From Clostridia bacterium (GTDB lineage Bacteria; Bacillota; Clostridia; TANB77; CAG-508), in assembly GCA_017510525.1 (NCBI GenBank), contig JAFWNC010000008.1, forward strand, positions 11,119 through 75,118: a stretch of 64,000 bases of DNA, given 5' to 3'. The translations under genes were made by a program, and so were the position numbers. Of the stretch, positions 1,179 to 38,400 are shown one piece after another. Position 1 is the first letter of the stretch, and the number at the start of each line of letters is the position of its first letter. The notes beneath the pieces are model-generated. The model worked only from the letters and a program-made list of their open reading frames with translations. It was not told the origin of the DNA and did not search any database.

Positions 1179-1799
1179 TTAATTAAATAGTTCTATAATT
1201 TTAAATTTTAATTTAATATCAAAACTATTTTCTGAAATTATAGATAGTTCCTCTTCAGAGAGATTATTTTTAAGTATATTTATTGATTTTTCTTCCATTT
1301 TACAGGTTGTGTTGTCTAATAGACAAAGAGGTGGAAACATTACACACCACCAGTTTTGACCTTCTGCTTTACCAATTTTAATTTTTATACCATCGTAATT
1401 TCCTGATGGGAAAGAAATGTTTTCATATTCTTTTTTTGGAAAATAGAAATTTCCAATTTCAACTGAAACGGGGTAGTTATATCCTTCTTCTTTAATTCTA
1501 TTTTCTGCAACTTTTGTTATTTTATCAATATGATAATTTGCAAATTCTATAAATTCTTCTTTTGTATTAATATTTGATGTGTGCGAATTAATATATTCTA
1601 AAACGGAATCTCTTACTTTCAGTTTTAATTCTTGGTCTCCTTCTGTGTCGCTATTTGCTATTACATGTAATCTAAAGATGGAACTCGAAATATCTGAGAA
1701 CACAGCGTTTGAGTAGTTAATTGCTGAAATTGTTACGAAAAAGATGAAGAGTAATATAAGAATTATGTGATATTGATATTTTTTAATAAAATTTAACAT
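1179..1799 (-). CDS. spoIIR: stage II sporulation protein R (SpoIIR)
   Basis: ORF track 1179..1853. Internal Met MLNFIKKY... is preceded by GGAGAAATAC. N-terminal membrane-spanning (TM) segment, then HVIANSDTEGDQELKLKVRDSVLEYI, a typical SpoIIR signature. Confidence 0.8.
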   Translation of the reverse strand: MLNFIKKYQYHIILILLFIFFVTISAINYSNAVFSDISSSIFRLHVIANSDTEGDQELKLKVRDSVLEYINSHTSNINTKEEFIEFANYHIDKITKVAENRIKEEGYNYPVSVEIGNFYFPKKEYENISFPSGNYDGIKIKIGKAEGQNWWCVMFPPLCLLDNTTCKMEEKSINILKNNLSEEELSIISENSFDIKLKFKIIELFN

Positions 1800-1914
1800 G
1801 GTATTTCTCCTTATAGGGTTATTTCTTCGAAGATGGAAATGTTCGATTCCCACAGTTCAATTATTGACATGTTTGTGATTATTATACATGTCGAATTTAG
1901 GCGTACGAATGTTG

Positions 1915-1975: not shown

Positions 1976-2455
1976 ATGTTTGAAAATAAGAAAACGGAGA
2001 GGATTTGTAGTTTATATGTAAATGAAATGCATCTTGTAGTTATGTTGATTCCATATATAGAAAAAAATCTAGAAAGAAACGTTAAAATAGTAACTATATT
2101 AGAAAAAGATTTAAACAATGAATTGGATGTTTTATTAGAAAGAACTAATCTAAATGAGAGTAAAAAGAAAAAAATTAGAGAAATAAATTGGGATAGTAAG
2201 AAATTAGATGAAATTGAAAAACTAAATTTAAAAAATGGAATTGTAATTATAAATGGTAGCAGAGAGTTTGTAGAAAGAGTTAATTTTCTAATTGAAAATA
2301 AAGCTGAAAAAATTATTAATTGTATAAAATTAGAAGATTTTGAGAAAAGAGCTAGTAGTGTTTTAGAAAAACATGACAAAATTTTAAATACTTTGGGTGA
2401 ACGTGAAATATCTGAGGTTTTTCATATAGATTTAAGGAATAATGTTAGGTTATAA
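1976..2455 (+). CDS. hypothetical protein, 159 aa, Lys/Glu-rich
   Basis: ATG preceded by TAGGAGG. No family recognised. Confidence 0.6.
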   Translation: MFENKKTERICSLYVNEMHLVVMLIPYIEKNLERNVKIVTILEKDLNNELDVLLERTNLNESKKKKIREINWDSKKLDEIEKLNLKNGIVIINGSREFVERVNFLIENKAEKIINCIKLEDFEKRASSVLEKHDKILNTLGEREISEVFHIDLRNNVRL

Positions 2456-2593: not shown

Positions 2594-2628
2594 ATGTGTA
2601 CACTGTAATATATAAAGGAGGTACCTAT

Positions 2629-5592
2629 ATGGCTGATGACTATTCAAAAGCAAAAGAGATTCTAAAGAAATATAATCAGGAACATTTATTACTTAAATAT
2701 GATGAGCTTAGTAAGTCAAAGCAAAAAGAATTATTAAGTCAAATATTATCTATTAATTTTGATTTAATGAAAGAACTATATGAAAATGCTAATAAAAAGG
2801 TTGATTATAAAAAATCAAATATTGAACCTATTGAATATATTGATAAATCAAAACTAACTGTATCTGAGAGAAAAAGATATGAAGAAAAAGGTATAGAAGC
2901 CATTAAGCTAAATAAATTTGCAGTAGTAACTATGGCTGGTGGACAAGGCACTAGACTTGGTCATAATGGTCCAAAAGGAACTTTTGATATGGGTCTAGAT
3001 TCTCATAAATCTTTATTTGAGCTTTTATGCGAGACTCTTAAAAGAGCTAGAAGCGAATATGGTGTTGTTATTCCTTGGTATATTATGACAAGTAGAGAGA
3101 ATAATGAAGAAACAGTTAGGTTTTTTGAAAATAATAAATATTTTGGATATCCTAAAAATGCGGTTCATTTCTTTATTCAAGGTGAATTACCTATGCTTGA
3201 TTTAGAAGGTAAAATATTACTTGATGAAAATGGATTAGTAAAACAAGCTGCTGATGGACATGGTGGTACATTAAAAGCACTTGGTAAAAATAAAATACTT
3301 GATGAATGGAAAGAAAATGGAATTGAGTGGATTTTCGTAAGTGGTGTTGACAATGTTCTAGTAAAATCTGTTGATCCATTATTAATAGGAATGTCAATTG
3401 AAAATAAGGTATTAGGTGCTGTTAAAACAATAGAAAAAACTGATCCAGAGGAAAAGGTTGGTGTTTTCTGTAGAAAGAATAAAAAAGTTGCAGTAATGGA
3501 ATACACTGAGATCTCTCATGAAATGGCAAATATGAGAGATAAATATGGTGCATTGGTTTATGGTGATGCAAATGCTGTTTTCCATTTATACAATATCAAA
3601 GGCTTAGAGAGAGTAAGTAATATGAGATTACCTTATCATACTGCTGTTAAAAAAGCTAAATATATTGATAAAAAAGGAAAATTGATTATACCTGAAAAAC
3701 CAAATGCTTATAAATTTGAATTATTTATATTTGATTCATATGAGATGCTAGATGATGTAGTTGTTTTAAGAGTAAAAAGAGAAGAAGAATTTGCTCCAAT
3801 AAAAAATGCTGAAGGTGTCGACAGTCCGGAGACAGCTAGAAAATTGTATACGGATTACTGGAATAAAGTTGCTTATATGAAGAAATTTGAAGAATGGTGT
3901 ACAAATCCTTTAATTGATAGTGATACAAAAGAGGAGCTTTTAGATATTAGAGGAAATGATGAAGAAATAAAAGATAGATTTTATAAGGATCTAGATTTTG
4001 GAACAGCTGGACTAAGAGGAGTTATTGGAGCAGGAACAAATAGAATGAATAAATATACTGTTTCAAAGGCAACTCAAGGATTAGCAAATTATATTATAAA
4101 ACAAGGTACAGAGAGAAAAGGTGTTGTAATTGCATATGATTCTAGAAACATGTCTAGAGAGTTTAGTGAATATGCAGCGCTTTGTTTAAATGCTAATGGA
4201 ATTAAAACATTTATTTTTGATGAATTAAGACCTGTTCCAGAGTTATCATTTGCTGTTAGAGAATTAGGTGCTACAGCTGGTGTAATGATTACAGCAAGCC
4301 ATAATCCACCACAATATAATGGATATAAAGTATATTGGGATGATGGTGCACAAATTGTTGCTCCAAGAGATAGAGAGATAATTGATGAAGTAAATAAAGT
4401 TACTGATTATTCAATGGTTAAAACTATTTCAAGAGAAGAAGCAGGAAAAAGATGTTTATATCATACTATTGGAAAATCAATAGATGACATGTATAATAGA
4501 ACACTTAAGAATTTATCAATAAATCCTGATATTATTAAAGAAGTTGAAAAAGACATAAAAATTGTTTATACACCTCTTCATGGTGCTGGAAATAAAGCTG
4601 TTCAAAGAGTTCTTTCTGATCTTGGATTTACTAATGTATATGTTGTTCCAGAACAAGAATTACCTGATGGAAATTTCCCAACTGTTAGTTATCCAAACCC
4701 TGAAGAACCTAAAGCCTATGAATTAGCTTTAAAACTAGCTAAAAAGGTTGATGCTGATATTATTTTAGCTACAGACCCTGATTCTGATAGATTAGGTATT
4801 TTTGTTAAAAATGTTAAAACTGGTGAATATATTTTATATACAGGAAACATGACAGCATTATTAATTGCTGAATATATTCTTTCTCAAAGAAAAGAAAAAG
4901 GAACTCTTCCTAAAAATGGTGCTATTATAAAGACAATAGTTTCTTCAAATTTAACTGACGATATAGCTGATTTTTACAAAATGAAATTAATTGAAGTGTT
5001 AACTGGATTTAAATATATTGGAGAGCAAATAAGAGGATTTGAGAAAAATCATAAGCATGAATATGTTTTTGGTTTTGAAGAAAGTTTTGGTTGCTTAGTT
5101 GGAACACATGCAAGAGATAAAGACGGAATTGTTGCTGTAATGATGCTAGCTGAAGCGGCAGCTTTTTATAAAAAGCAAGGATTAACGTTATGGGATCAAA
5201 TGCTTAATATTTATGAGAAATATGGTTATTATAAAGAAGCTCAAACTTCAATTGTTCTAAGTGGAGCTGAAGGAGCTGAAAAGATTAAGGAACTTATGAA
5301 TAATTTAAGAAACAATCCTCCAAAAAAATTTGGAAAGTTCAAAATTGTAGCTATTAGGGATTATGATAAAGGTGTTCGAATTGAGCTTGAAACTGGAAAA
5401 GAGGAAAAGATTACTCTTCCTAAATCTAATGTTCTTTATTATGAGCTTGAAAATAATGAATGGTGTTGTGCAAGACCTTCTGGAACAGAGCCTAAAGTTA
5501 AGTTCTATATGGGGGTTAAGGGCAAAAACATGGAAGACGCTGAAGAAAGATTAGCAAATTTAAAAAGTGAAGTTTTAAATATAGTTGAATAA
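2629..5592 (+). CDS. bifunctional fusion: N-terminal UDP-sugar (UDP-GlcNAc/UDP-Glc) pyrophosphorylase (UDPGP/UAP family) joined to C-terminal alpha-D-phosphohexomutase (phosphoglucomutase/phosphomannomutase)
   Basis: Start MADDYSK follows AAAGGAGG. N-terminal half carries MAGGQGTRLG, WYIMTS and DGHGG (UDPGP family). C-terminal half carries GTAGLRG, TASHNPPQYNGYKVY, DPDSDR, GEESFG and RPSGTEPKVKFY (PGM family). A single uninterrupted frame; the internal MKKFEEW has no RBS. Confidence 0.8.
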   Translation: MADDYSKAKEILKKYNQEHLLLKYDELSKSKQKELLSQILSINFDLMKELYENANKKVDYKKSNIEPIEYIDKSKLTVSERKRYEEKGIEAIKLNKFAVVTMAGGQGTRLGHNGPKGTFDMGLDSHKSLFELLCETLKRARSEYGVVIPWYIMTSRENNEETVRFFENNKYFGYPKNAVHFFIQGELPMLDLEGKILLDENGLVKQAADGHGGTLKALGKNKILDEWKENGIEWIFVSGVDNVLVKSVDPLLIGMSIENKVLGAVKTIEKTDPEEKVGVFCRKNKKVAVMEYTEISHEMANMRDKYGALVYGDANAVFHLYNIKGLERVSNMRLPYHTAVKKAKYIDKKGKLIIPEKPNAYKFELFIFDSYEMLDDVVVLRVKREEEFAPIKNAEGVDSPETARKLYTDYWNKVAYMKKFEEWCTNPLIDSDTKEELLDIRGNDEEIKDRFYKDLDFGTAGLRGVIGAGTNRMNKYTVSKATQGLANYIIKQGTERKGVVIAYDSRNMSREFSEYAALCLNANGIKTFIFDELRPVPELSFAVRELGATAGVMITASHNPPQYNGYKVYWDDGAQIVAPRDREIIDEVNKVTDYSMVKTISREEAGKRCLYHTIGKSIDDMYNRTLKNLSINPDIIKEVEKDIKIVYTPLHGAGNKAVQRVLSDLGFTNVYVVPEQELPDGNFPTVSYPNPEEPKAYELALKLAKKVDADIILATDPDSDRLGIFVKNVKTGEYILYTGNMTALLIAEYILSQRKEKGTLPKNGAIIKTIVSSNLTDDIADFYKMKLIEVLTGFKYIGEQIRGFEKNHKHEYVFGFEESFGCLVGTHARDKDGIVAVMMLAEAAAFYKKQGLTLWDQMLNIYEKYGYYKEAQTSIVLSGAEGAEKIKELMNNLRNNPPKKFGKFKIVAIRDYDKGVRIELETGKEEKITLPKSNVLYYELENNEWCCARPSGTEPKVKFYMGVKGKNMEDAEERLANLKSEVLNIVE

Positions 5593-5596
5593 ACGT

Positions 5597-5630
5597 AAAA
5601 TTGGGCGGGGTTTCATCCCTGCCCAATTTT
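5597..5630 (+). terminator. GC-rich hairpin plus T-run; REP-like family 1 variant that also serves as terminator
   Basis: aaaattgggcggggtttcatccctgcccaatttt immediately after the stop codon. Confidence 0.6.
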
Positions 5631-5827
5631 ATCTTATATAAGCTCATTATTTTTTAATATAATATTGCTTTTTTTTAAAACATATAATAAAATAAGGACA
5701 CTATTTAGGGCTTTTACAAGTAATATATCACAAAAAGTAAAAAACTTTTTCTTGATTTTAATATAAAGTGACAATATTTTTAATAATTATAGTGTTTAAT
5801 TATAAGAAAAAGTAAGAGGTGGTAAGG

Positions 5828-8266
5828 ATGTTTCAAAATTTAGCGGAAGAAATTATGCAAAAAAAAGAGGATGTTAAATTTAATAAAATAAAGACTAATT
5901 TAATTGGCAGAGTTTTTAAAATTCAAAATATAATCGTTTATATTTTATCTTTTTTAATATCTACAGTTAAGGTAGATGATTCAATTGCTCCTTTTGGAAT
6001 GGCTATGTTTGCAGCAGCCTGTGGAAGTAAGATTCCTGCAGGAGTTGTTTTAGCAAGTACTATGGCTGCTACGCTAATAAGTTTTGGTGTTAATGAATTA
6101 TTAACTTATTCTTTGACTGTTCTTGTTTTTGTTTTATCAGTAATCGTTTTAAAACCCAGAATTGAAGATGATAGAAATGAAAGAGGAAAACTTGGAAAAA
6201 ATGTTATTTTTTCTATTTTAGTTGTACAAGCTATCAGAATTTTTACAGGTACTGTATTGGTTTATGATATAGTGTTTGTAGTTGTTACAGCAATTATGAC
6301 TTATATCTTTTATAAAATTTTTGTAAATAGTTTAAATGTTATTGAAGAGATTAAAACAAAAAGAGCATTTACAATTGAAGAAATAATTGGTGCTACTGTT
6401 TTTATTTCAATAGCAGCTGTATCTCTTTCAGAATTTAGAATCTATGGACTTTCTGTATCAAATATTATAGCTATATTCCTAATATTAGTATTAGGATGGA
6501 GAAATGGAATATTGGTTGGTTCAACAGCTGGTGTTTCAATTGGAATGGTTCTAGGTGTTATAGGAGTTGTTACACCTTTACAAATCCTTTCTTTTGCGAT
6601 TTCAGGATTAATTTCAGGTGCTCTAAGTAGATTTGGAAAATTTGGTGTTGCTTTCGGATTTTTAATCGGAAATACTGTTTTGTCTTATATTTCAACAGGC
6701 ACAACAATACAGATATTGCAATTTCAAGAGATACTTATAGCTTCTGTTGGTTTAATTTTTGTTCCTAAATATGTTGAAATAAATATTGAAAGTATAATTG
6801 GCACTACTAAGTTGTTAGCACCACCAATTGATAATGGATTATCAGAGAAAAGAGACTTAAGTTTTAAACTAAAGAATATTTCGTCAACGATAACCGAAAT
6901 GATTAAAAGTTACGGGATTACAGAAGAGGATAAAATTATAGAGGAGCTTGAGGGAATTAATACTAGTAGAGAAATGTTTGTAGAAGATTTTTTAAATAAT
7001 ATAGATGCTTTCCCTAATAATTTTCTATATGAAGATCTTGTGGATGTTCAGAATGGCTTAATTGAGGATATATATGTAACTATAGTTAAACAAGGAGAAA
7101 TATCGGAAAACGATTTAATTAAAATATTTGAAAAGAGAAATAATTTTATTATAGATGATCAAGATAATGACTTAATAAGAATGGATGTAGAGCAAATAGT
7201 AAGAATAGCAAATCGAACATATAAGGTTAATGAATTAAACTTCTCATGGAAAAAGAAGTTACAAGAAAACAAGACGACTATTTCTAAAGCTATGAAAGGT
7301 GTTTCAAAAGCTATAACTGATATAGCTGAAGATATATCTAAACCTAAAGAGACAGAGTTTAAAGAAAAAGAAAAGATAATAACACAAACGCTTTCACAAA
7401 AGGGTATTAGTATTATTGATATAAAAATGAGACAAAATAGAGTTGGCAAGTATTTTATTGATCTATTTTTGGAAAATGATATTACTAAAGATGAAATTAG
7501 ATTTATTGAAAATATTTTTACAAAAGTATGTAATGAAAGAATAATTTTTAGAAAAGACTCTAAGCATTTAGATTTAGAAAACTATATGCAAAAGTATTCT
7601 TCAGAAGATAAATATACTGTTCAAATTGGTGTTTCTAAAGTAGCTAAATCAGGTAATAATATTTCAGGTGATAGTGATATTCAAATTAAACTTGATGATG
7701 ATAAATATTTATTATCTATTTCTGATGGAATGGGTTCAGGTCAAGAAGCTAGAAAGAGTAGCCAAATTGTTGTTAGAATGCTTAAAAAACTATTATCAGC
7801 AGGATTTGAGAAGAATGATTCTTTGGAATTAATAAATTCTACAATAAAACTTTCTAATGAAGAAATATATGCAACTATGGATACAGCTATATTAGATTTA
7901 TATTCTGGACAAGTTGAATTTATTAAGAATGGTGCTGTTAATACATTCATCAAAAATGATAAAAATATTGATGAAGTGATTTCAAATTCTTTACCTTTAG
8001 GTATTCTGAATAGTGTTGATTTCACAGCTTGTGATAAAGAAATAAAAGATGGTGACATTATTGTTATGTGCAGTGATGGAATCATTGATTCAAATCAAGA
8101 GTCAGATGATGATAAATGGTTTGTTAAATTACTTAAAAATGTTCATACAAATAATGTTCAGAGAATGGCTGATATTATTCTAAATGAAGCAATTGATAAT
8201 AATTATGGAATAGCAAAAGATGACATGACTGTTATTGTTGCTAAAATTGGACTTAAGAAAAATTAA
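5828..8266 (+). CDS. spoIIE: stage II sporulation protein E (SpoIIE), membrane-bound PP2C phosphatase
   Basis: About 10 N-terminal TM helices. C-terminal PP2C motifs ISGDSD...LSISDGMGSGQEA. AAGAGG sits 8 nt upstream of the ATG at 5828. Confidence 0.9.
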   Translation: MFQNLAEEIMQKKEDVKFNKIKTNLIGRVFKIQNIIVYILSFLISTVKVDDSIAPFGMAMFAAACGSKIPAGVVLASTMAATLISFGVNELLTYSLTVLVFVLSVIVLKPRIEDDRNERGKLGKNVIFSILVVQAIRIFTGTVLVYDIVFVVVTAIMTYIFYKIFVNSLNVIEEIKTKRAFTIEEIIGATVFISIAAVSLSEFRIYGLSVSNIIAIFLILVLGWRNGILVGSTAGVSIGMVLGVIGVVTPLQILSFAISGLISGALSRFGKFGVAFGFLIGNTVLSYISTGTTIQILQFQEILIASVGLIFVPKYVEINIESIIGTTKLLAPPIDNGLSEKRDLSFKLKNISSTITEMIKSYGITEEDKIIEELEGINTSREMFVEDFLNNIDAFPNNFLYEDLVDVQNGLIEDIYVTIVKQGEISENDLIKIFEKRNNFIIDDQDNDLIRMDVEQIVRIANRTYKVNELNFSWKKKLQENKTTISKAMKGVSKAITDIAEDISKPKETEFKEKEKIITQTLSQKGISIIDIKMRQNRVGKYFIDLFLENDITKDEIRFIENIFTKVCNERIIFRKDSKHLDLENYMQKYSSEDKYTVQIGVSKVAKSGNNISGDSDIQIKLDDDKYLLSISDGMGSGQEARKSSQIVVRMLKKLLSAGFEKNDSLELINSTIKLSNEEIYATMDTAILDLYSGQVEFIKNGAVNTFIKNDKNIDEVISNSLPLGILNSVDFTACDKEIKDGDIIVMCSDGIIDSNQESDDDKWFVKLLKNVHTNNVQRMADIILNEAIDNNYGIAKDDMTVIVAKIGLKKN

Positions 8267-8273
8267 AAAAGTA

Positions 8274-8302
8274 TTGACAAATTTTTTTTATGAACTTATA
8301 AT
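8274..8302 (+). promoter_or_regulatory. consensus sigma-A promoter TTGACA-17-TATAAT driving the metK leader
   Basis: ttgaca 8274-8279, tataat 8297-8302. Confidence 0.6.
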
Positions 8303-8311
8303 ACCTTTAAT

Positions 8312-8440
8312 ATATGTTATCGAGAGTGGACGAGAGAATCGGCTTTATGACTCCACAGCAACCTATTAATTTAGGTGCTAATACCGACAAAGTTACTTTT
8401 ATAGTGCTTTGGATGATGATTTATTAGATAGTATAGATTG
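8312..8440 (+). ncRNA. SAM-I (S-box) riboswitch leader of metK
   Basis: gttatcgagagtggacgagagaatcggctttatgactccacagcaacc...ggtgctaataccgac resembles the S-box core (YTTATCAAGAG...GCAACC...GGTGCTAAT). It sits 5' of metK and is followed by an intrinsic terminator. Confidence 0.55.
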
Positions 8441-8445
8441 TTAGA

Positions 8446-8478
8446 CCTTTGTGCTATTTAAGGCACAAGGGTTTTTTT
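8446..8478 (+). terminator. riboswitch expression-platform terminator
   Basis: cctttgtgctatttaaggcacaaggg followed by T7. Confidence 0.6.
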
Positions 8479-8563: not shown

Positions 8564-9706
8564 ATGAGAAAACTATTTACGTCAGAAAGTGTTACAGAAG
8601 GACATCCAGATAAATTGTGTGATTATATTTCAGATAGTGTTTTGGATAGTTTTTTTGCAGAAGATGAGAATTCAAGAGTTGCTTGTGAGACAGTAGCAGG
8701 AAAAGGAGTTGTTTTTATTACAGGAGAGATAAGTTCCAATGCTAATGTTGATATTGAGAAGGTTGCTAGAAATGCAATAAAAGAAGTTGGATATTTTGGA
8801 GAGAATTATGATATTGATTATAATACATGCAAAATTGTTGTTAATGTGTCTAAACAATCCCCAGATATTGCGCAAGGTGTGGATAATTCTTTAGAAGATA
8901 AAGAAGGAGAAGCGGTTAATTCAGAGGGAGCTGGAGATCAAGGATTAATGTTTGGATTTGCTTGTGATGAAACAGAGGAGTTAATGCCTCTTCCAATTTC
9001 ATTGGCTCATAAGCTTTCTAAGAAATTAACTGATGTTAGAAAAGAAGGAATAATTGACTATATAGGAGCTGATGGAAAAGTACAGGTTACTGTAGAATAT
9101 GAAGATTCAAATCCTGTAAGAATTGATACAATCGTTGTTTCAGTTCAACATAGAGAAGATGTTTCGTTAGATCAGCTTAAGAGAGATATTAAAGAAAAGG
9201 TAATTAAAGAAGTTGTACCACCAGAATTATTAGATGACAATACTAGATTTTTTATAAATCCAACAGGTAGATTTGTAATTGGCGGACCTTTAGGGGATAG
9301 CGGACTTACTGGAAGAAAAATTATTGTTGATACATATGGTGGATATAGTCGTCATGGTGGTGGCGCTTTTTCAGGAAAAGATCCAACAAAGGTTGATAGA
9401 TCTGCTGCTTATATGGCAAGACATGTTGCAAAAAATGTTGTTGCAAATGGATATGCTAAAAGGTGTGAAATCCAGTTCGCTTATAGTATTGGTGTAGCTA
9501 AACCGGTTTCAATTTATATTGATACCTTTGGAACTAATAGTATTCCTGAAAGTGAAATATTAGATAAGATTAATAAAAAATTTGATTTAACACCAAGAGG
9601 TATTATTAATTATTTAGAACTAAGAAAACCTATTTATAGAAAGACAACCAATTATGGCCATTTTGGAAGGGAAGGACTTCCATGGGAAGAAGTTATAGAA
9701 TTATAA
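8564..9706 (+). CDS. metK: S-adenosylmethionine synthetase
   Basis: [20 protein letters not shown]..., [12 protein letters not shown], full length 380 aa. Confidence 0.95.
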
Positions 9707-9842: not shown

Positions 9843-11411
9843 ATGAGTAGAAATAGAGGTAGAAGATTTGATGCCCAGCCTAGGATTAATATGAAAAAGG
9901 TTATAGCTACTATAATTGCTTTTCTAGTTATCATAATGGTTGTAGCATCAATAATAATTCTAATCAAAAGAAGTAAAAATCAAAATACAACAGCTGAAGA
10001 TATAAAATATTTTGCTTATTATTCAAGTAATTCAAATAATGAGAAAGTAAAATATGGAGAAGAAGAGATTAATCCGCCTAGTTTAGGAGTTATAAATAGT
10101 AATGGAGAAGTTGTTATACCTGCTAAGTATGATTTAGTAATAGTACCAGACAAAACAAAAGGATTATTTATTACTACTTTAACAGGTGAAAATGACAATG
10201 TAACAGTTAAAGTTTTTAATGAAAACAATGAAGAAATACTAGATGATTTTTCTAATATAGATGCAATTAGTAATTCTTTAAATGGAGAAATATGGTTTGA
10301 AGAAAATGTATTAAAATATCAAGAGAATGGTAAATATGGATTGATAGATTTTGATGGAAATGTTCTTCTTTCTCCAGAATATGAATATATTGGAGCTTTA
10401 AATGGAATTGAAAGAAGTTTGCTTTTAATCAAAGATGGAAAAACTGGTTTATATAATAATGTTTCTAAAGATATTATTATAGAACCAAAGTACAAATCTA
10501 TTGAAGCTTTAGGAAAAACTTATAATGATGGATATATTGTTAAAGACGAAAATGATAAATATGGTATTATAGGACCTGATAAAAAAGTAATTTTAGAAAC
10601 AAAATATGATGAGATTTCTAAAATTAATGGAAATGGAATGTATAATGTTAAAAGTGAAGGTGACAATATAGTAATAAACACTGAGAATATAGTAGTTTTA
10701 TCAACTGGATTCGATGAAGTAAAATCTATTGATGGAGACAATATAATTATAAGAAATGGAGACAAATATGGAATACTAAACAGTAAAAGTGAAACTGTTA
10801 TAGAGCCTAAATATGAAGATTTATCTTATTGTTATACTGATACTTATATAGCAAAACAAGAAGGAAAATATGGTGTTATAAATACTTTAGGTGATGTAAA
10901 AATTGATTTTAAATATTCAAATATAGAATTTAGAAAAGATGTAAACATTTTCGTATGTGATAATTCTGATTATACATCTGATTTATATAGTAGAGAGCTT
11001 GAATATAAGGTAACAGGAATAATATCAAGAGCAGACTCTGAAAAAGGCTATATAATGGTTAAAATCAATAATGAAGTAAAATATTATAATCTAAAATTTG
11101 AAGAAAAAACTGAGAAAGATATTTTCCCAGATAATACATTGTTCTTAGTAAAAGAAAATAACAAATATGGATATGAGAACAAAGATGGAGAAAGAATAGT
11201 TGATTGCATTTATGATGATGCAATGCCTCAGAATGAGTATGGTTTCTGTAGTGTTAATAAAGGAGGAAAATGGGGTGCATTAAAATCAGATGGTAATGTA
11301 ATTGTTGAACCTAAACTTGAAATAAATGAAAGTGTATTAATAATTAATTTCATTGGAAAATATCATCGTACAGAGTTATTTGACGGATTAGAAGTATATA
11401 CAGACGAGTAA
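9843..11411 (+). CDS. membrane-anchored protein with about 10 WG-containing (KYG/KWG...E/DPKY) repeats
   Basis: N-terminal TM segment. Recurring KYGLIDFDGNVLLSPEYEYI, KYGIIGPDKKVILETKYDEI and KWGALKSDGNVIVEPKLE units. RBS AAGGAGG. Confidence 0.7.
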   Translation: MSRNRGRRFDAQPRINMKKVIATIIAFLVIIMVVASIIILIKRSKNQNTTAEDIKYFAYYSSNSNNEKVKYGEEEINPPSLGVINSNGEVVIPAKYDLVIVPDKTKGLFITTLTGENDNVTVKVFNENNEEILDDFSNIDAISNSLNGEIWFEENVLKYQENGKYGLIDFDGNVLLSPEYEYIGALNGIERSLLLIKDGKTGLYNNVSKDIIIEPKYKSIEALGKTYNDGYIVKDENDKYGIIGPDKKVILETKYDEISKINGNGMYNVKSEGDNIVINTENIVVLSTGFDEVKSIDGDNIIIRNGDKYGILNSKSETVIEPKYEDLSYCYTDTYIAKQEGKYGVINTLGDVKIDFKYSNIEFRKDVNIFVCDNSDYTSDLYSRELEYKVTGIISRADSEKGYIMVKINNEVKYYNLKFEEKTEKDIFPDNTLFLVKENNKYGYENKDGERIVDCIYDDAMPQNEYGFCSVNKGGKWGALKSDGNVIVEPKLEINESVLIINFIGKYHRTELFDGLEVYTDE

Positions 11412-11443
11412 AAAATAAAATTACAAAAGAGGAGAGATATATC

Positions 11444-12682
11444 TTGGAATTGAATGTTAAATATCAATATTCATATTTCTTATATCCTTATGTTGTTGAA
11501 GAAGATAAATATGAACGATATATTATAAGGTTATTAAAAGATAAGAATTGTGAATTAAAAATATTTGAAAAAGAAAAAGACTTGGATTTATATAATTATT
11601 TTCATCCTAATATTAGAGATAATTATTTTCCAACATTTGAACTTAGAAATGAGAAATTAAAAGAATTTAATGACATGTCTGTTGAGAAAAAAGCTAGATC
11701 TATATCAGGATATTCTTGTGTTTCTTTTAATTATAATATGGCTGAAGATATACAAGGAAAAATGGGAAATGAAAATGGAATTTTCTTTAATATTCCTAAA
11801 ATAGAGATAATATGCTTTAAAACGGGAATATGTTTTCTAAGTATAAAAACACATATGGAAGAATCAGAAAAGTTTGCTGATTTATTAAATTTTAATTATA
11901 AATTTAAGGAAATAAATTCTGAATTTAGTGATTTAAAGAAATTTGAAAATATTAATATTCAAACAGGAATTTATAAAGATTCTAAAAAAATAACTGATGT
12001 AATAAGTGAGATAACAGGAGATAGTAAAAGAACAGATTTAGTAAATAATAAGTTTTATACATTTTCATATGCATGTATTCCTTCAGACTATTGGAATGAG
12101 AGAAATGATTTTGAGAATCTTGAAAGTGAGTTTCTGAAATATGCTAATACTTTTCCAAGCAATTATATTGTAGGTCTAAATAAAAACAATGATGAACAGA
12201 ATTTGAGTGTAATTTCAAAGATGAAGTATTCTAGAACAGGAATAACAAATATGAACTGTAATCTATTATGTTCAACAGCTGATATGTATAATTATACAAA
12301 GCTTCCTTATGAATATGAAACTATGATTTATTATACTTATATTTTAAGATTATATCAAAAATTATTCTTAAATTATATTAATTCAGAATTTAAAAATTAT
12401 GAGAGAATAATTAAAATAAGACGAAAATTTATTGATTTTACAAATACTTTATGGGCTAAAGATATTACTAATGATGATACAGGAAGTTTATATTATAAAA
12501 TGTTAAATGAAACATTAGAAATTGAGGAACTATTTGAGCAAATAGGGAAAAAATACGAAATTATTTATAAAGATTTAAACATAGAAAAGAATAATAGAGA
12601 TAATATAATTGTTGTAATGCTTCTAATTACTTCACTTGTATTAAATACTATTACTATAATTTCATATTTATATCTGAAATAA
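11444..12682 (+). CDS. hypothetical protein, 412 aa, with a single C-terminal TM helix
   Basis: TTG start 9 nt after GAGGAG. No family recognised. Tyr/Asn-rich. Confidence 0.5.
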   Translation: MELNVKYQYSYFLYPYVVEEDKYERYIIRLLKDKNCELKIFEKEKDLDLYNYFHPNIRDNYFPTFELRNEKLKEFNDMSVEKKARSISGYSCVSFNYNMAEDIQGKMGNENGIFFNIPKIEIICFKTGICFLSIKTHMEESEKFADLLNFNYKFKEINSEFSDLKKFENINIQTGIYKDSKKITDVISEITGDSKRTDLVNNKFYTFSYACIPSDYWNERNDFENLESEFLKYANTFPSNYIVGLNKNNDEQNLSVISKMKYSRTGITNMNCNLLCSTADMYNYTKLPYEYETMIYYTYILRLYQKLFLNYINSEFKNYERIIKIRRKFIDFTNTLWAKDITNDDTGSLYYKMLNETLEIEELFEQIGKKYEIIYKDLNIEKNNRDNIIVVMLLITSLVLNTITIISYLYLK

Positions 12683-19538: not shown

Positions 19539-19563
19539 AGGGCGGGGATGGAACCCCGCCCAC
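19539..19563. repeat. REP-like element, family 1
   Basis: aagggcggggatggaaccccgcccac. Confidence 0.6.
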
Positions 19564-20722: not shown

Positions 20723-20752
20723 ATCGGGCGGGGACAAGCCCCGCCCCTACAG
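20723..20752. repeat. REP-like element, family 1
   Basis: atcgggcggggacaagccccgcccctacag. Confidence 0.65.
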
Positions 20753-28993: not shown

Positions 28994-29022
28994 AAGGGGC
29001 GGGCATGGAAACCTGCCCCTAC
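28994..29022. repeat. REP-like element, family 1
   Basis: aaggggcgggcatggaaacctgcccctac. Near-identical to the copy at 2496. Confidence 0.7.
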
Positions 29023-35482: not shown

Positions 35483-38400
35483 ATGCAAAAGAATAGGAGT
35501 ATAAGAGAGAAAATCACAGCTAGTGTTTTAGTTATATGTTTGCTTATGTCATATTTGGCTACATTTAGTAGTATCTATGTAACTTATGCTAGTGATGAAA
35601 AAGCTGAAGTTGTTTTCAAGGCTGAAATTGTTGATTTGAATAGTGAAAATTCAAATGAACAATCTGAAAATAATGAAAACACTGAAGAAACAGAGAATAA
35701 TGAAGAGCTGGAGAATCAGGTTGAAACTGAAGAACAAGATGAAAATAGTTCAAATCAAGAAGCTGAGGTTAACCTACAAACTAACACCCCTGAATCAGAA
35801 GAAAAACCTGGAAGTAGGTTTGTTCTTAAGATTAAGGTTGGTGTTAAAAATAATGGTTATTTGAAAAACGGCAAGATTGAAATCTCTGATCTTGAAAACC
35901 AAATTTTCTCTATTTCTGAATTCTCTAATCCTATAGTTCAATCTATCTCTGATGGAGTTATAAAACTTAAAACAATAGATGCAAAAGAAGAATATGAAAT
36001 CGAAATACCTCTTGAATTAAAGAAAAATGCTGATGTTTCAGCAAATTCTATAGAAAACGGAACAAAGATAAAACTAACTGGAATATATGTTGACGAACAA
36101 GCTGTTGAAGAAAAAGTTGAAAGGGAACAAACTGTTTTCGTTGAGGTTGAAAACGAAAGAAAAATCGAAATAGGAAGCAACATTGAAAAATTTATTAAAT
36201 ATACTCAAGATAGTAAAGAATATGCGTTAATCCAAGTAAAGGTTGAAATTCAAGATACAGCTGAAAACCTTATATTACCTGTTAAATCAACTGATTTAGC
36301 AATCAAACTTCCTGAAATAACTGTTGAGGAAGGTAAGGAAAAGCCAGAGATTGAAAAAGTTTTAGTTGTTGCAAAAAATACTGGTTTCACAAATGGTAAA
36401 TTAGGTTCAGATGTTAAGTTTACTGAGGATAATTATAGTGTAAACAATGATGGAAAACTTAATATACATGTTGAAAATAAGGCTGAAGATGGAAAATACA
36501 AACAAACAAATGGAAAAGATGAATATTTAATAGAGCTAACTTATAATAATGCAGAAAATATTCAAACACAGTCTGCAAAAGGCAAAATTGAAGCTACTAT
36601 TAGTTTATTTGACAAGAAATCTACAAAAGATGTAAATAGTGTTTTAGAACAAGAATACAAATTTGATGAAGCTTCTACAAATAAGGTTACATATGATGTT
36701 CGAACTCTTACAGAAAAAATAAGTAAAGGAAATATATATGCTAACATAAACAAAGAAGATAACTACTATGAAACAGAATATAAAAATGAGGTTTCATTTA
36801 ATATTTCAAGAGCCAATAGTATAAAAACAATTGAAATTAGAGAATATGATGAAAGTTATTATATTGAAGATGGTAGTAAATATTCTACAAAAACTGATGT
36901 TGGGCTAGATACTTATTACAAAACATCAACCTTTAATAAAGAAAACTTAGTTAATATAATTGGCGAAAACGGTAGTTTAGAAATACTAAACGAGGAGGGA
37001 GATAGCTTAATTACTATTAATAAAGATACACAAGCTAATGAAGAAGGAAATATTGTTTATCCTTATAATAACAAAATCGAAAAAATCGTTGTAAGGGTTA
37101 ATAATCCTGAAAAAGAGGGAATTTTAAATATTCAAAATACAAAAGCAATTGAAAAGAGTAATTATACTAAAGAATCTTTAGTTCAATTTAAAGGAATTGC
37201 TAATTCATATAATGCAGCTGCTTTATATGATGAGGATATCAAGTCTGAGCTTGGTATTAAAGAAATTAAAACAGAAATGGTTGGAACAAAAACTAGAGCA
37301 GACATGGAGATTTCAAGGGGAACTTTAAGTACTATTGTTAAAAATGAAGATGTTGAGTTTGATATTTGTTTAAACAATTCAAAAGATTCAAGCGATATGT
37401 ATATTAATCCTGAATTTGAAATTACTCTTCCAGCTGGTGTTACAACGGCTACTATTAAAGATATCAACGTTTTATACGGAAATAATGAGCTTATAAAGTC
37501 AGAAGAGTCAAGAACTGGTTTGAATGATAACAATCAAGTTGTAATTTATGTAAAACTTGATGGTGTTCAAAAGAATTATAGTATTGGTGATACTGAAAGA
37601 GGAACAACTATTGTTGTTAAAACTGATATTGAATTAGATAGATATTTATCTAATAGAGAAGCTCCAGTTGAACTTAGATATAGAAATGAAAATGCTACAG
37701 AATATGGTTCTGAGGTTGTTGACGGTGTTGCAAAAGAAACACTAAATTTCAAATTTCAGGGCGGATTTGGTGTTGTAGCAAGCCAAAGAATAAGCGGATA
37801 TAATGCTGATAATTATGTAATGTCTATGAACCAAGGTGAGCAAATAGCTTCTATTTCTGATGTTGAAACTTCAAAACAAGCTGAAATGGAGATTGCTTTA
37901 ATTAATAATAATGAAGAGATTATGGAAAACCCTATTATATTAGGAAGAATTCCTTTTGATGGTGTTACTTCAATTAGTAGTTCAGAGAGCTTGGGAGCAA
38001 ATGTAAATACAAAAATGACTAGCGGAATAGAGAAAATTGTTGGAAAAGATGTTAAAGTATATTATTCAGAAAATGGTGAAGCAACAAAAGAATTAGATAA
38101 AGCTGAAAATGGATGGAGAGAAGATATTGGCGATTTACAAAAGGTTAAATCATATTTAATAGTTGTTGATGGAAATATTGAGATTGGTGAAAGTTTAGCT
38201 TTAAAATATGGTTTTGAAATTCCTGAAAACTTAGGAAAAAATGCTAGTATTTTCGGAACTTTTGGAGTTTACTATGATACTGAAATTGGAACAAAATTAG
38301 TTGAGGCTAATAAAGTTGGTCTTGAAACTGAAAAGGAAGAAATTCAAGAATCAGAGGAAACAGTATCTTTATTTAGTGTTAGAGCAGTACGTTACGGAAC

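Follow-up and report, generated by a model that had tools for sequence, protein, structure and literature searches.

A conserved in-frame fusion of a UAP1-like uridylyltransferase and a phosphoglucomutase in uncultured Clostridia, with a probable role in the supply of UDP-glucose

A stretch of 64,000 nucleotides from an uncultured Clostridia bacterium (GTDB lineage Bacillota; Clostridia; TANB77; CAG-508), i.e., positions 11,119 to 75,118 of contig JAFWNC010000008.1 in assembly GCA_017510525.1 and hereafter called the window, carries a single gene at positions 2629–5592 of the plus strand. The gene consists of 987 codons followed by a TAA stop codon (5590–5592). The first part of its product (the N-half, residues 1–416; 2629–3876) is a predicted UTP:sugar-1-phosphate uridylyltransferase of the UDPGP family resembling UAP1/AGX1, a UDP-N-acetylglucosamine (UDP-GlcNAc) pyrophosphorylase (UAP), whilst the second part (the C-half, residues 417–987; 3877–5589) is a predicted α-phosphoglucomutase (PGM) of the PgcA/PGM2 type with four domains. 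Probably, the gene is a housekeeping gene rather than a sporulation gene, and its product is a bifunctional enzyme, originating from an in-frame fusion, that would supply the cell with UDP-glucose.

The gene is one unbroken open reading frame (ORF), preceded by a strong ribosome-binding site (RBS), AAAGGAGG (2614–2621, plus strand), which was read directly in the sequence 7 nt upstream of the ATG at 2629. In DNA with a G+C content of ~29%, the length of the ORF and the E-values of its matches are far beyond chance. The original prediction, which was based on the letters of the window and a list of its ORFs, described a single ORF without a stop codon between the domains. This description was borne out, although the length of 988 amino acids given there counts the stop codon and should read 987. 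A stop or start codon between the domains that is masked by a sequencing error, named there as what would refute the fusion, is excluded. The identical 987-aa protein was found on 13 independent contigs, which derive from separate ENA and Logan samples and from different assemblers, and both domain sets together with a length of 980–1005 aa were present in 119 of the 120 best-scoring homologue clusters, at 70–87% identity. Thus, the search for the same architecture that had been proposed yielded at least 119 homologue clusters with both halves, and the single-ORF fusion is confirmed as genuine and conserved. Certain fused clusters are represented on 55–66 contigs of up to 753 kb, and a second fused lineage of nine members (1002 aa, 53% identity) is found on contigs of up to 458 kb. 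A word-indexed search retrieved more than 7,800 relatives, and P0121 was the sole fused cluster among the best 150 of 25,099 matches in a library of 1.84 billion cluster representatives. Copies of the 987-aa protein are available at NCBI under the accessions MBR3132851.1, MBR3152215.1 and MBR3152248.1. All three are named UTP--glucose-1-phosphate uridylyltransferase only, so that the public records annotate the protein by one of its two activities.

The N-half matches the Pfam family UDPGP (PF01704) over residues 47–395 with an E-value of 1.6e-49 (169.1 bits against a cut-off of 22); none of the NCBIfam models matches it. Human AGX1 and AGX2 are its closest solved relatives, with an E-value of 2.8e-84 over residues 9–405. 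The N-half is nearer to solved UAPs, which score between 1e-84 and 1e-48, than to UDP-glucose pyrophosphorylases (UGPases, or UGPs), which reach 2.8e-15 at best (about 1e-15 to 1e-9), or to UDP-sugar pyrophosphorylases (USPases). Consistently, the top 47 matches of the N-half in Foldseek were all UAPs, with 38% identity and a target TM-score (TMt) of 0.73–0.81. The nucleotide-binding loop MAGGQGTRLGHNGPKG (residues 102–117; 2932–2979, plus strand) corresponds to AGX1 residues G110, G111, Q112, G113, R115 and K122, and, bar one position, its conservation in 119 fused homologues is 95% or higher. None of the UTP-binding and catalytic residues of AGX1 has been lost (G110–G113, R115, K122, M165, Q196, G222, D253, N254, G290, E303, Y304 and K407), and the UDPGP-family loop, the catalytic lysines and the uridine contacts are identical in the window protein and all aligned relatives. 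Cys251 of AGX1 is replaced by Gly. The C-terminal domain of AGX1 (residues ~425–505) is absent from the N-half, the alignment ending at AGX1 residue 423; stand-alone bacterial relatives of the N-half likewise end at 413–430 aa.

In the C-half, the Pfam domains PGM_PMM_I, II and III were matched at residues 456–864 with E-values of 2.7e-42, 1.5e-25 and 5.4e-22, respectively. The fourth domain, PGM_PMM_IV, reached 17.2 bits, which is under the cut-off of 23.1. The same domain passes the cut-off in the homologue P0121; in the window protein it bears the phosphate loop and, in an AlphaFold 2 (AF2) model, is folded at high predicted local distance difference test (pLDDT) values. Thus, the four-domain architecture of the α-D-phosphohexomutase superfamily is found in the C-half, and the original reading of the protein as a eukaryotic-type nucleotidyltransferase joined to a complete α-D-phosphohexomutase was right, the matches in Pfam, the PDB and Foldseek specifying the former as UAP1/AGX1-like.

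The phosphohexomutase loops that bear the phosphoserine, the metal and the phosphate are all present and are conserved in the 119 fused homologues. The phosphoserine loop TASHNPPQYNGYK (residues 555–567; 4291–4329, plus strand, as for the following loops) contains the segments TASHN and YNGYK, both at least 95% conserved. It is followed by the metal-binding loop DPDSDR (residues 716–721; 4774–4791), the sugar-binding loop GFEESFG (residues 815–821; 5071–5091) and the phosphate-binding loop RPSGTEPK (residues 949–956; 5473–5496), which again is at least 95% conserved. The motifs quoted in the original prediction were recovered at residues 102–111 (MAGGQGTRLG), 458–464 (GTAGLRG), 555–563 (TASHNPPQY), 716–721 and 949–956, whereas for the sugar loop, quoted as GEESFG, only its existence held and not its exact letters.

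From residue 413 to its end at residue 987, the protein is 60–67% identical, over the full length, to stand-alone Lachnospiraceae PGMs of 565–580 aa. Cultured carriers of such relatives, which bear the source name phosphoglucomutase, are Roseburia yibonii, Anaerosporobacter mobilis DSM 15930 and Eubacterium xylanophilum ATCC 35991. In Foldseek, the C-half resembles PGM of Salmonella (2fuv and 3olp; TMt about 0.7). Members of the PgcA/PGM2 subgroup are recognized by a length of ~570 aa, an N-terminal helical extension before the GTAGLRG segment, a DPDxDR metal loop and an EESxG sugar loop, and an EES-type sugar loop is a PGM-type signature in the phosphohexomutase superfamily. By these signs, the mutase half is predicted to be of the PgcA/PGM2 type. 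With the NCBIfam models of E. coli-type Pgm and of GlmM, the whole protein scores far under the equivalog cut-offs (91.8 against 778 for TIGR01132, 94.1 against 447.55 for TIGR01455 and 175.4 against 439 for TIGR03990).

The two halves are equally conserved among the fused homologues, with mean identities of 74% (N-half) and 73% (C-half), and the catalytic motifs of both halves are each at least 95% conserved in the 119 fused homologues. Hence, both activities appear to be under selection.

Which sugar is handled may be deduced from the mutase and from one residue of the uridylyltransferase. In AGX1, AfUAP1 and both Arabidopsis enzymes, the same set of four residues, i.e., Asn223, Gly290, Glu303 and Asn327, is responsible for the recognition of hexosamines (PMC3888555). 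This set is incomplete in the N-half: Gly290, Glu303 and Asn327 are kept, but the position of Asn223 is, in a MAFFT alignment, taken by His211 (codon CAT, 3259–3261, plus strand). In phmmer, the segment ADGHGG of the N-half aligns with PPGHGD of human UGP2, using a UGP2 fragment that was checked against PDB entries 4r7p and 3r2w (885 bits). Thus, His211 is equivalent to the His in the GHGD segment of UGPases, which, by offset, is His192 of the Trypanosoma brucei UGP (TbUGP; 3gue aligns from residue 82). In TbUGP, His192 contacts the OH-2 of glucose and the β-phosphate, and it sterically bars 2-acetamido sugars (PMC3270307). All 54 aligned fused homologues have His211, as do all adjacent unfused relatives. 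In contrast, the UDPGP genes at two glmS-linked loci of distant Lachnospiraceae (L059 and L063) keep Asn at this position. At both loci, the Asn-type UDPGP gene lies 1.5–2 kb downstream of a stand-alone PGM gene. The arrangement at L059 (4291–15896; uncultured Lachnospiraceae, CAMBLG010000004.1) reads LCP, two ORFs, PGM, LCP, Asn-type UDPGP, GlmS and HtrA, and thus represents a second, differently ordered linkage of PGM and UDPGP in a context of wall glycopolymers and hexosamines; L063 has a similar arrangement of PGM and UDPGP.

Since the mutase is of the PGM type and a UGP-type His occupies the Asn223 position, glucose is favored over GlcNAc as the sugar, and we consider it probable that the PGM-linked His211 clade uses glucose-1-phosphate in the sequence glucose-6-phosphate ↔ glucose-1-phosphate ↔ UDP-glucose. 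The conserved adjacency to, and fusion with, a housekeeping PGM likewise argues that His211-type members make UDP-glucose. Of the originally proposed path from hexose-6-phosphate via hexose-1-phosphate to UDP-hexose, or the GlcNAc equivalents, the consecutive chemistry stands, whilst the GlcNAc equivalents are less likely than glucose. In the proposed mechanism, the C-half would interconvert glucose-6-phosphate and glucose-1-phosphate through its phosphoserine and Mg2+ site, and the N-half would convert glucose-1-phosphate and UTP into UDP-glucose and pyrophosphate (PPi). A pyrophosphorylase beside the mutase may help to capture glucose-1-phosphate, which is disfavored by the equilibrium of the mutase reaction. 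The UDP-glucose produced would be destined for envelope glycolipids and glycopolymers.

How the fusion arose can be read from related genomes. Reading frames were traced with tblastn over 80 species-level genome loci (numbered L001 onward), and ten sister loci were used to compare the junction. At the junction (residues 405–423, KLYTDYWNKVAY-M417-KKFEEW; 3841–3897, plus strand), the tail of the UAP joins the former PGM start codon, ATG at 3877–3879. In the sister loci, the UAP gene ends with ...ARELYKKFYKLD*, which is followed by a spacer of 10–260 nt, an RBS and the PGM start MNYLEEYKKWCE..., whereas in the fused forms, ...ARKLYTDYWNKVAY-M417-KKFEEWCT, the end of the UAP sequence is followed without a break by what was once the first codon of PGM. 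As in the window, the junction is read through in L001, L002, L003 and L005. In twelve sister genomes, a UAP-like gene and a PGM gene occur in the same order as separate genes, and the proteins encoded by unfused sisters are 55–57% identical to the window protein in the N-half and 61–65% in the C-half. A terminator-like hairpin is located in the spacer between the two genes in L006, L007, L008, L012 and L074, and in L041 the genes are 3.7 kb apart, with genes for a VanW protein and an M14 peptidase in between. Since sister species carry both genes in the same order but separately, the fusion evidently arose inside the Clostridia from neighboring genes by loss of the spacer. It was correctly noted before that the two activities are normally encoded by separate genes, which is true of nearly all relatives. 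In two of the traced loci, the N-half frame is broken upstream of the junction, i.e., in L005 (8578–10968; residues 194–410 traced) and in L008 (8302–9255; residues 110–410), which could reflect a frameshift, an assembly error or a pseudogene.

The internal Met was originally reported to lack an RBS, and, indeed, no GGAGG-like site is present in the 25 nt upstream of Met417 (GGATTACTGGAATAAAGTTGCTTAT). Among the 119 fused homologues, 67 have Met at residue 417, and the other 52 (44%) have Thr, Leu, His, Asn or Arg. Given this loss of Met417 and the absence of a Shine-Dalgarno (SD) site, independent translation of the mutase half does not appear to be a conserved feature. In a neighbor-joining (NJ) tree, the fused N-halves, that of P0121 included, group together as the sister of the unfused N-halves, and in the tree of the C-halves P0121 is on a long branch. 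Crude as the NJ tree is, its topology would agree with one fusion event. The AF2 model of the protein (pLDDT 79) shows a continuous helix over residues 400–425 across the junction, at moderate pLDDT.

Locally, the gene order is murA and spoIIR on the minus strand, followed on the plus strand by an ORF of 159 codons, the fused gene, spoIIE and a SAM riboswitch with metK. The location of the fused gene between spoIIR (1179–1853, minus strand) and spoIIE (5819–8266, plus strand), on which the original prediction had based a role in supplying UDP-sugars for spore cortex, coat or surface polysaccharide, was verified with Pfam and NCBIfam for both genes. The murA gene, encoding UDP-GlcNAc 1-carboxyvinyltransferase (NF009470, 583 bits), is located at 7212–8474 of locus L082, on the minus strand, and reaches into the window from position 1 to ~1100. 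The order murA, spoIIR, ORF and UAP is also found in a lineage with 72% identity (L086), and in most of the clade the UAP-like gene, in fused and unfused form alike, is preceded by spoIIR and the 159-aa ORF. The 159-aa ORF (1976–2455, plus strand) was recognized by tblastn at 28–39% identity in 14 loci, upstream of the UAP-like gene; gene calling picked it up in L082 and L086, and it adjoins the UAP-like gene in fused as well as unfused loci. It has no match in Pfam, NCBIfam or the PDB and could encode a partner or regulator. Only in this species is spoIIE found downstream of the fused gene. The lineage with 72% identity has, after its fused gene, a gap of 1 kb and genes for a glycosyltransferase of family 2 (GT2) and a short-chain dehydrogenase/reductase (SDR). 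In the 53%-identical fused lineage, PSP1 and TraX are encoded upstream and an Exo_endo_phos protein downstream, and neither spoIIR nor spoIIE is near the fused gene.

A putative σA/σ70-like promoter, TTGACT-17 nt-TATTAT (score 10/12), is present upstream of the fused gene at 2565–2593 on the plus strand. Its score alone is at background level (50 sites against 48.6 expected in the scan), but a TTGACT / (TG)nTATAA(G/T)AT pair is present at the same place in L001, L002, L003 and L086, where the spacers have otherwise diverged. Downstream of the gene lies a terminator-like, GC-rich hairpin, AATTGGGCGGGG / CCCTGCCCAATT followed by a T-run (5599–5633, plus strand; hairpin-family match 5603–5624). 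A hairpin of the same family is located at 2497–2518, between the 159-aa ORF and the promoter of the fused gene. This family, GGGCGGG..loop..CCCGCCC, is intergenic, downstream of genes, and counts five sites in the window against none expected, the remaining ones being at 19540–19561, 20726–20746 and 28997–29018. The hairpins are probably terminators or REP-like (repetitive extragenic palindromic) elements. With a conserved σA-like promoter, hairpins on both sides and an adjacency to spoIIE that is not conserved, the fused gene looks like an independent, vegetatively expressed unit, and its expression may well be constitutive, as befits a housekeeping gene.

Several observations weigh against the proposal of a housekeeping enzyme that supplies UDP-glucose. 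In overall sequence and fold, the N-half is far nearer to UDP-GlcNAc pyrophosphorylases than to UGPases (1e-84 versus 1e-15). It has also kept G290, E303, N327 and the F381/F383 pair of AGX1, and, as the rest of the pocket is UAP-like, the enzyme might accept GlcNAc-1-phosphate or N-acetylgalactosamine-1-phosphate (GalNAc-1-phosphate) or have a broad specificity. The role attributed to His211 depends on a single position and on the comparison with a distantly homologous UGP, and murA, the product of which consumes UDP-GlcNAc, is located two genes upstream on the other strand. Furthermore, both reactions are reversible, and net flux could be catabolic. Finally, at a predicted TM-score (pTM) of 0.58, the AF2 model does not fix the orientation of the two domains or the geometry between their active sites, on which any channeling would depend. 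Some of these points would fit an enzyme of the hexosamine branch, in which GlcNAc-6-phosphate (or glucosamine-6-phosphate) would be converted via the 1-phosphate into UDP-GlcNAc or UDP-GalNAc, bypassing or supplementing GlmM and GlmU, e.g., in the salvage of GlcNAc in the gut. This seems unlikely. It is true that every one of the closest solved relatives of the N-half is a UDP-GlcNAc pyrophosphorylase (35–38% identity, E ~1e-84), that three of the four hexosamine-recognition residues and F381/F383 are kept, that murA is nearby, that the PGM, LCP, UDPGP and glmS cluster of Lachnospiraceae holds a related UDPGP gene, and that an archaeal GlmM model is the top NCBIfam match of the C-half, yet well under its cut-off. 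However, the UGP-type His211 is present in every PGM-linked homologue, whilst the glmS-linked paralogues keep Asn; the loops of the C-half are of the PGM type, and this half is 60–67% identical to ordinary clostridial PGMs; and the scores with the GlmM models, 94 and 175 bits, fall far short of the cut-offs (447 and 439). The proximity of murA and spoIIR, on the opposite strand, looks like general synteny in Firmicutes and counts against the hexosamine branch as well.

Flux in the opposite direction, with the fusion acting in catabolism or salvage or as a broad UDP-sugar pyrophosphorylase, has a similarly small chance of being correct. UDP-glucose, formed from UDP-galactose by GalE in an Isselbacher-type pathway, would then react with PPi to yield glucose-1-phosphate and, subsequently, glucose-6-phosphate for glycolysis. 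The reactions of pyrophosphorylase and mutase are freely reversible (PMC6329318), the C-half is apparently orthologous to the PGM that serves general purposes, catabolism included, in related Clostridia, and the mixed UAP/UGP-like pocket could be promiscuous, comparable to that of Arabidopsis GlcNAc1pUT-2. Nevertheless, galK, galE, galT and sugar-transport genes are absent beside the fused gene in the three contexts examined, and the GT2 glycosyltransferase encoded downstream in one lineage suits an anabolic role. A supplier of UDP-sugars dedicated to sporulation, for cortex, coat or spore-surface polysaccharide, is very improbable. What speaks for such a role is synteny: spoIIR and the 159-aa ORF upstream in most of the clade, spoIIE downstream in this species, and spoIIE ~3 kb downstream of a stand-alone PGM gene in four Lachnospiraceae loci. 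It was not borne out: spoIIR is divergent, on the opposite strand, other fused species lack an adjacent spoIIE and the second fused lineage lacks both genes, the gene follows a conserved σA-type promoter and lies between hairpins, and the 64 kb around it belong to the normal core of the chromosome (metK, smc, prfA, pcrA, mreC, a penicillin-binding protein (PBP) gene and minC). The chance that two genes were merged by an error in sequencing or assembly, or that a separate PGM is still made from the internal start, is negligible. The position of the junction exactly at the old PGM start codon, the retention of Met417 in this species and the occurrence of frameshifts in metagenome-assembled genomes, such as those breaking the N-halves of L005 and L008 elsewhere, could be raised in its favor. 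Against it stand the recurrence of the ORF, unchanged, on 13 contigs of diverse samples and assemblers, the at least 119 clusters of equal length, the complete disappearance of the spacer, stop codon and RBS of the sister species from the fused forms, and the replacement of Met417 in 44% of the fused homologues, without an SD site.

Overall, the bifunctional housekeeping enzyme supplying UDP-glucose is the reading we favor. Its hosts would be uncultured, spore-forming gut Clostridia, the ancestors of which had a UAP1/AGX1-like gene upstream and the organism's own PgcA/PGM2-type PGM gene downstream. More far-reaching, and unlikely, is the idea that the fused enzyme, and with it the entire His211 clade, provides a eukaryote-like two-step route from GlcNAc-6-phosphate to UDP-GlcNAc or UDP-GalNAc or, in a milder version, the sole route to UDP-glucose in genomes lacking GalU/GtaB. 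If the former were true, amino sugars from host or diet would be recycled to cell-wall precursors without GlmM and GlmU; in the latter case, the replacement of Asn by His would have turned a UAP scaffold to the work of a UGPase. For bacterial UAP1-like UDPGP proteins, NCBIfam offers no curated model. A natural single-chain catalyst from glucose-6-phosphate to UDP-glucose would be of possible use in one-pot synthesis of nucleotide sugars.

The remainder of the window shows several other features. A SAM (S-adenosylmethionine) riboswitch (RF00162; 8314–8422, plus strand; 67.7 bits) lies directly upstream of metK (8564–9706), and a perfect match to a TTGACA-17-TATAAT promoter is found nearby at 8274–8302. 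Downstream of metK, the region 9843–12682 (plus strand) encodes a WG-repeat protein of 522 aa and a 412-aa protein without Pfam match, both of which are conserved in other contigs of the species. Further along, smc, tatD, prfA, pcrA, radC, mreC, a PBP gene and minC are part of a core chromosome of uniform composition. Four consecutive giant genes at 35483–59880 (plus strand) encode proteins of 1622, 3049, 1632 and 1691 aa; the 3049-aa protein has no Pfam match, and the other three only have surface-adhesin domains of the SdrD_B, DUF11 or CarboxypepD_reg type.

A fusion of UGP and PGM as such is already known. It was described in the diatoms Phaeodactylum tricornutum (protein 50444, also known as UGP1, ~115 kDa and cytosolic) and Thalassiosira pseudonana and in the oomycete Phytophthora, was examined in vivo in the synthesis of chrysolaminarin, and was read as allowing faster conversion or better regulation (PMC2173943, PMC10356853). 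The literature searches yielded this stramenopile precedent only and no description of a bacterial UDPGP-PGM fusion; given the precedent, the novelty of the original prediction is smaller than it seemed. Among PDB chains searched with Foldseek, none spans both halves. The stramenopile and clostridial proteins both combine, in one polypeptide, a UDPGP-family pyrophosphorylase and a phosphoglucomutase, which catalyze consecutive steps toward UDP-glucose. However, the pyrophosphorylase of the former, a eukaryotic protein, is described as a UGP, whereas the clostridial N-half is of the UAP1/AGX1 type with one UGP-like His and is linked to a PgcA/PGM2-type mutase. Since the N-half is UAP-like and sister Clostridia keep the genes separate and adjacent, the clostridial fusion appears to be convergent with, rather than inherited from, the stramenopile one, insofar as the diatom protein is known here from its published description.

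The halves can also be compared separately. With UAP1/AGX1 (PDB 1jv1 and 1jvg; AfUAP1, 4bma), the N-half shares the fold and 35–38% identity over ~400 residues, but AGX1 has a C-terminal domain where the N-half leads into the phosphoglucomutase. The stand-alone PGMs of Clostridia and Lachnospiraceae resemble the C-half in length and motifs but are encoded by separate genes with their own RBS and ATG. The unfused pairs of L004, L006, L007, L012–L014, L056, L064 and L074 have the gene order, the upstream spoIIR and 159-aa ORF, and the His211-type pyrophosphorylase in common with the fused gene, but they encode two polypeptides and, with spacer hairpins in several of them, may be transcribed separately. 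Other long matches differ in architecture: P0167 (1205 aa) combines an α-amylase with PGM, P0153 (757 aa) a VTT membrane domain with PGM, and P0235 (1030 aa) a 460-aa region without Pfam match with PGM, whilst P0124 (1888 aa), probably eukaryotic, contains three UDPGP stretches, PH and ADH_N.

Among bacterial enzymes, GlmU combines the activities of a glucosamine-1-phosphate acetyltransferase and a GlcNAc-1-phosphate uridylyltransferase (PMC3888555). Like the clostridial protein, it joins successive steps of nucleotide-sugar synthesis in one bacterial polypeptide, but GlmU-type domains (NTP_transferase and hexapeptide-repeat acetyltransferase) are not among the Pfam matches of the latter. The folds of GlmU, i.e., NTP_transferase and a left-handed β-helix, and its chemistry are unrelated to those of the clostridial fusion. 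Related genomes present the full series of stages: two genes separated by 3.7 kb, neighbors with a terminator between them, genes that almost touch, and a fusion in which the start Met is decaying. Current understanding is not overturned, and the clostridial protein stands as a bacterial parallel to the known fusion of diatoms and oomycetes.

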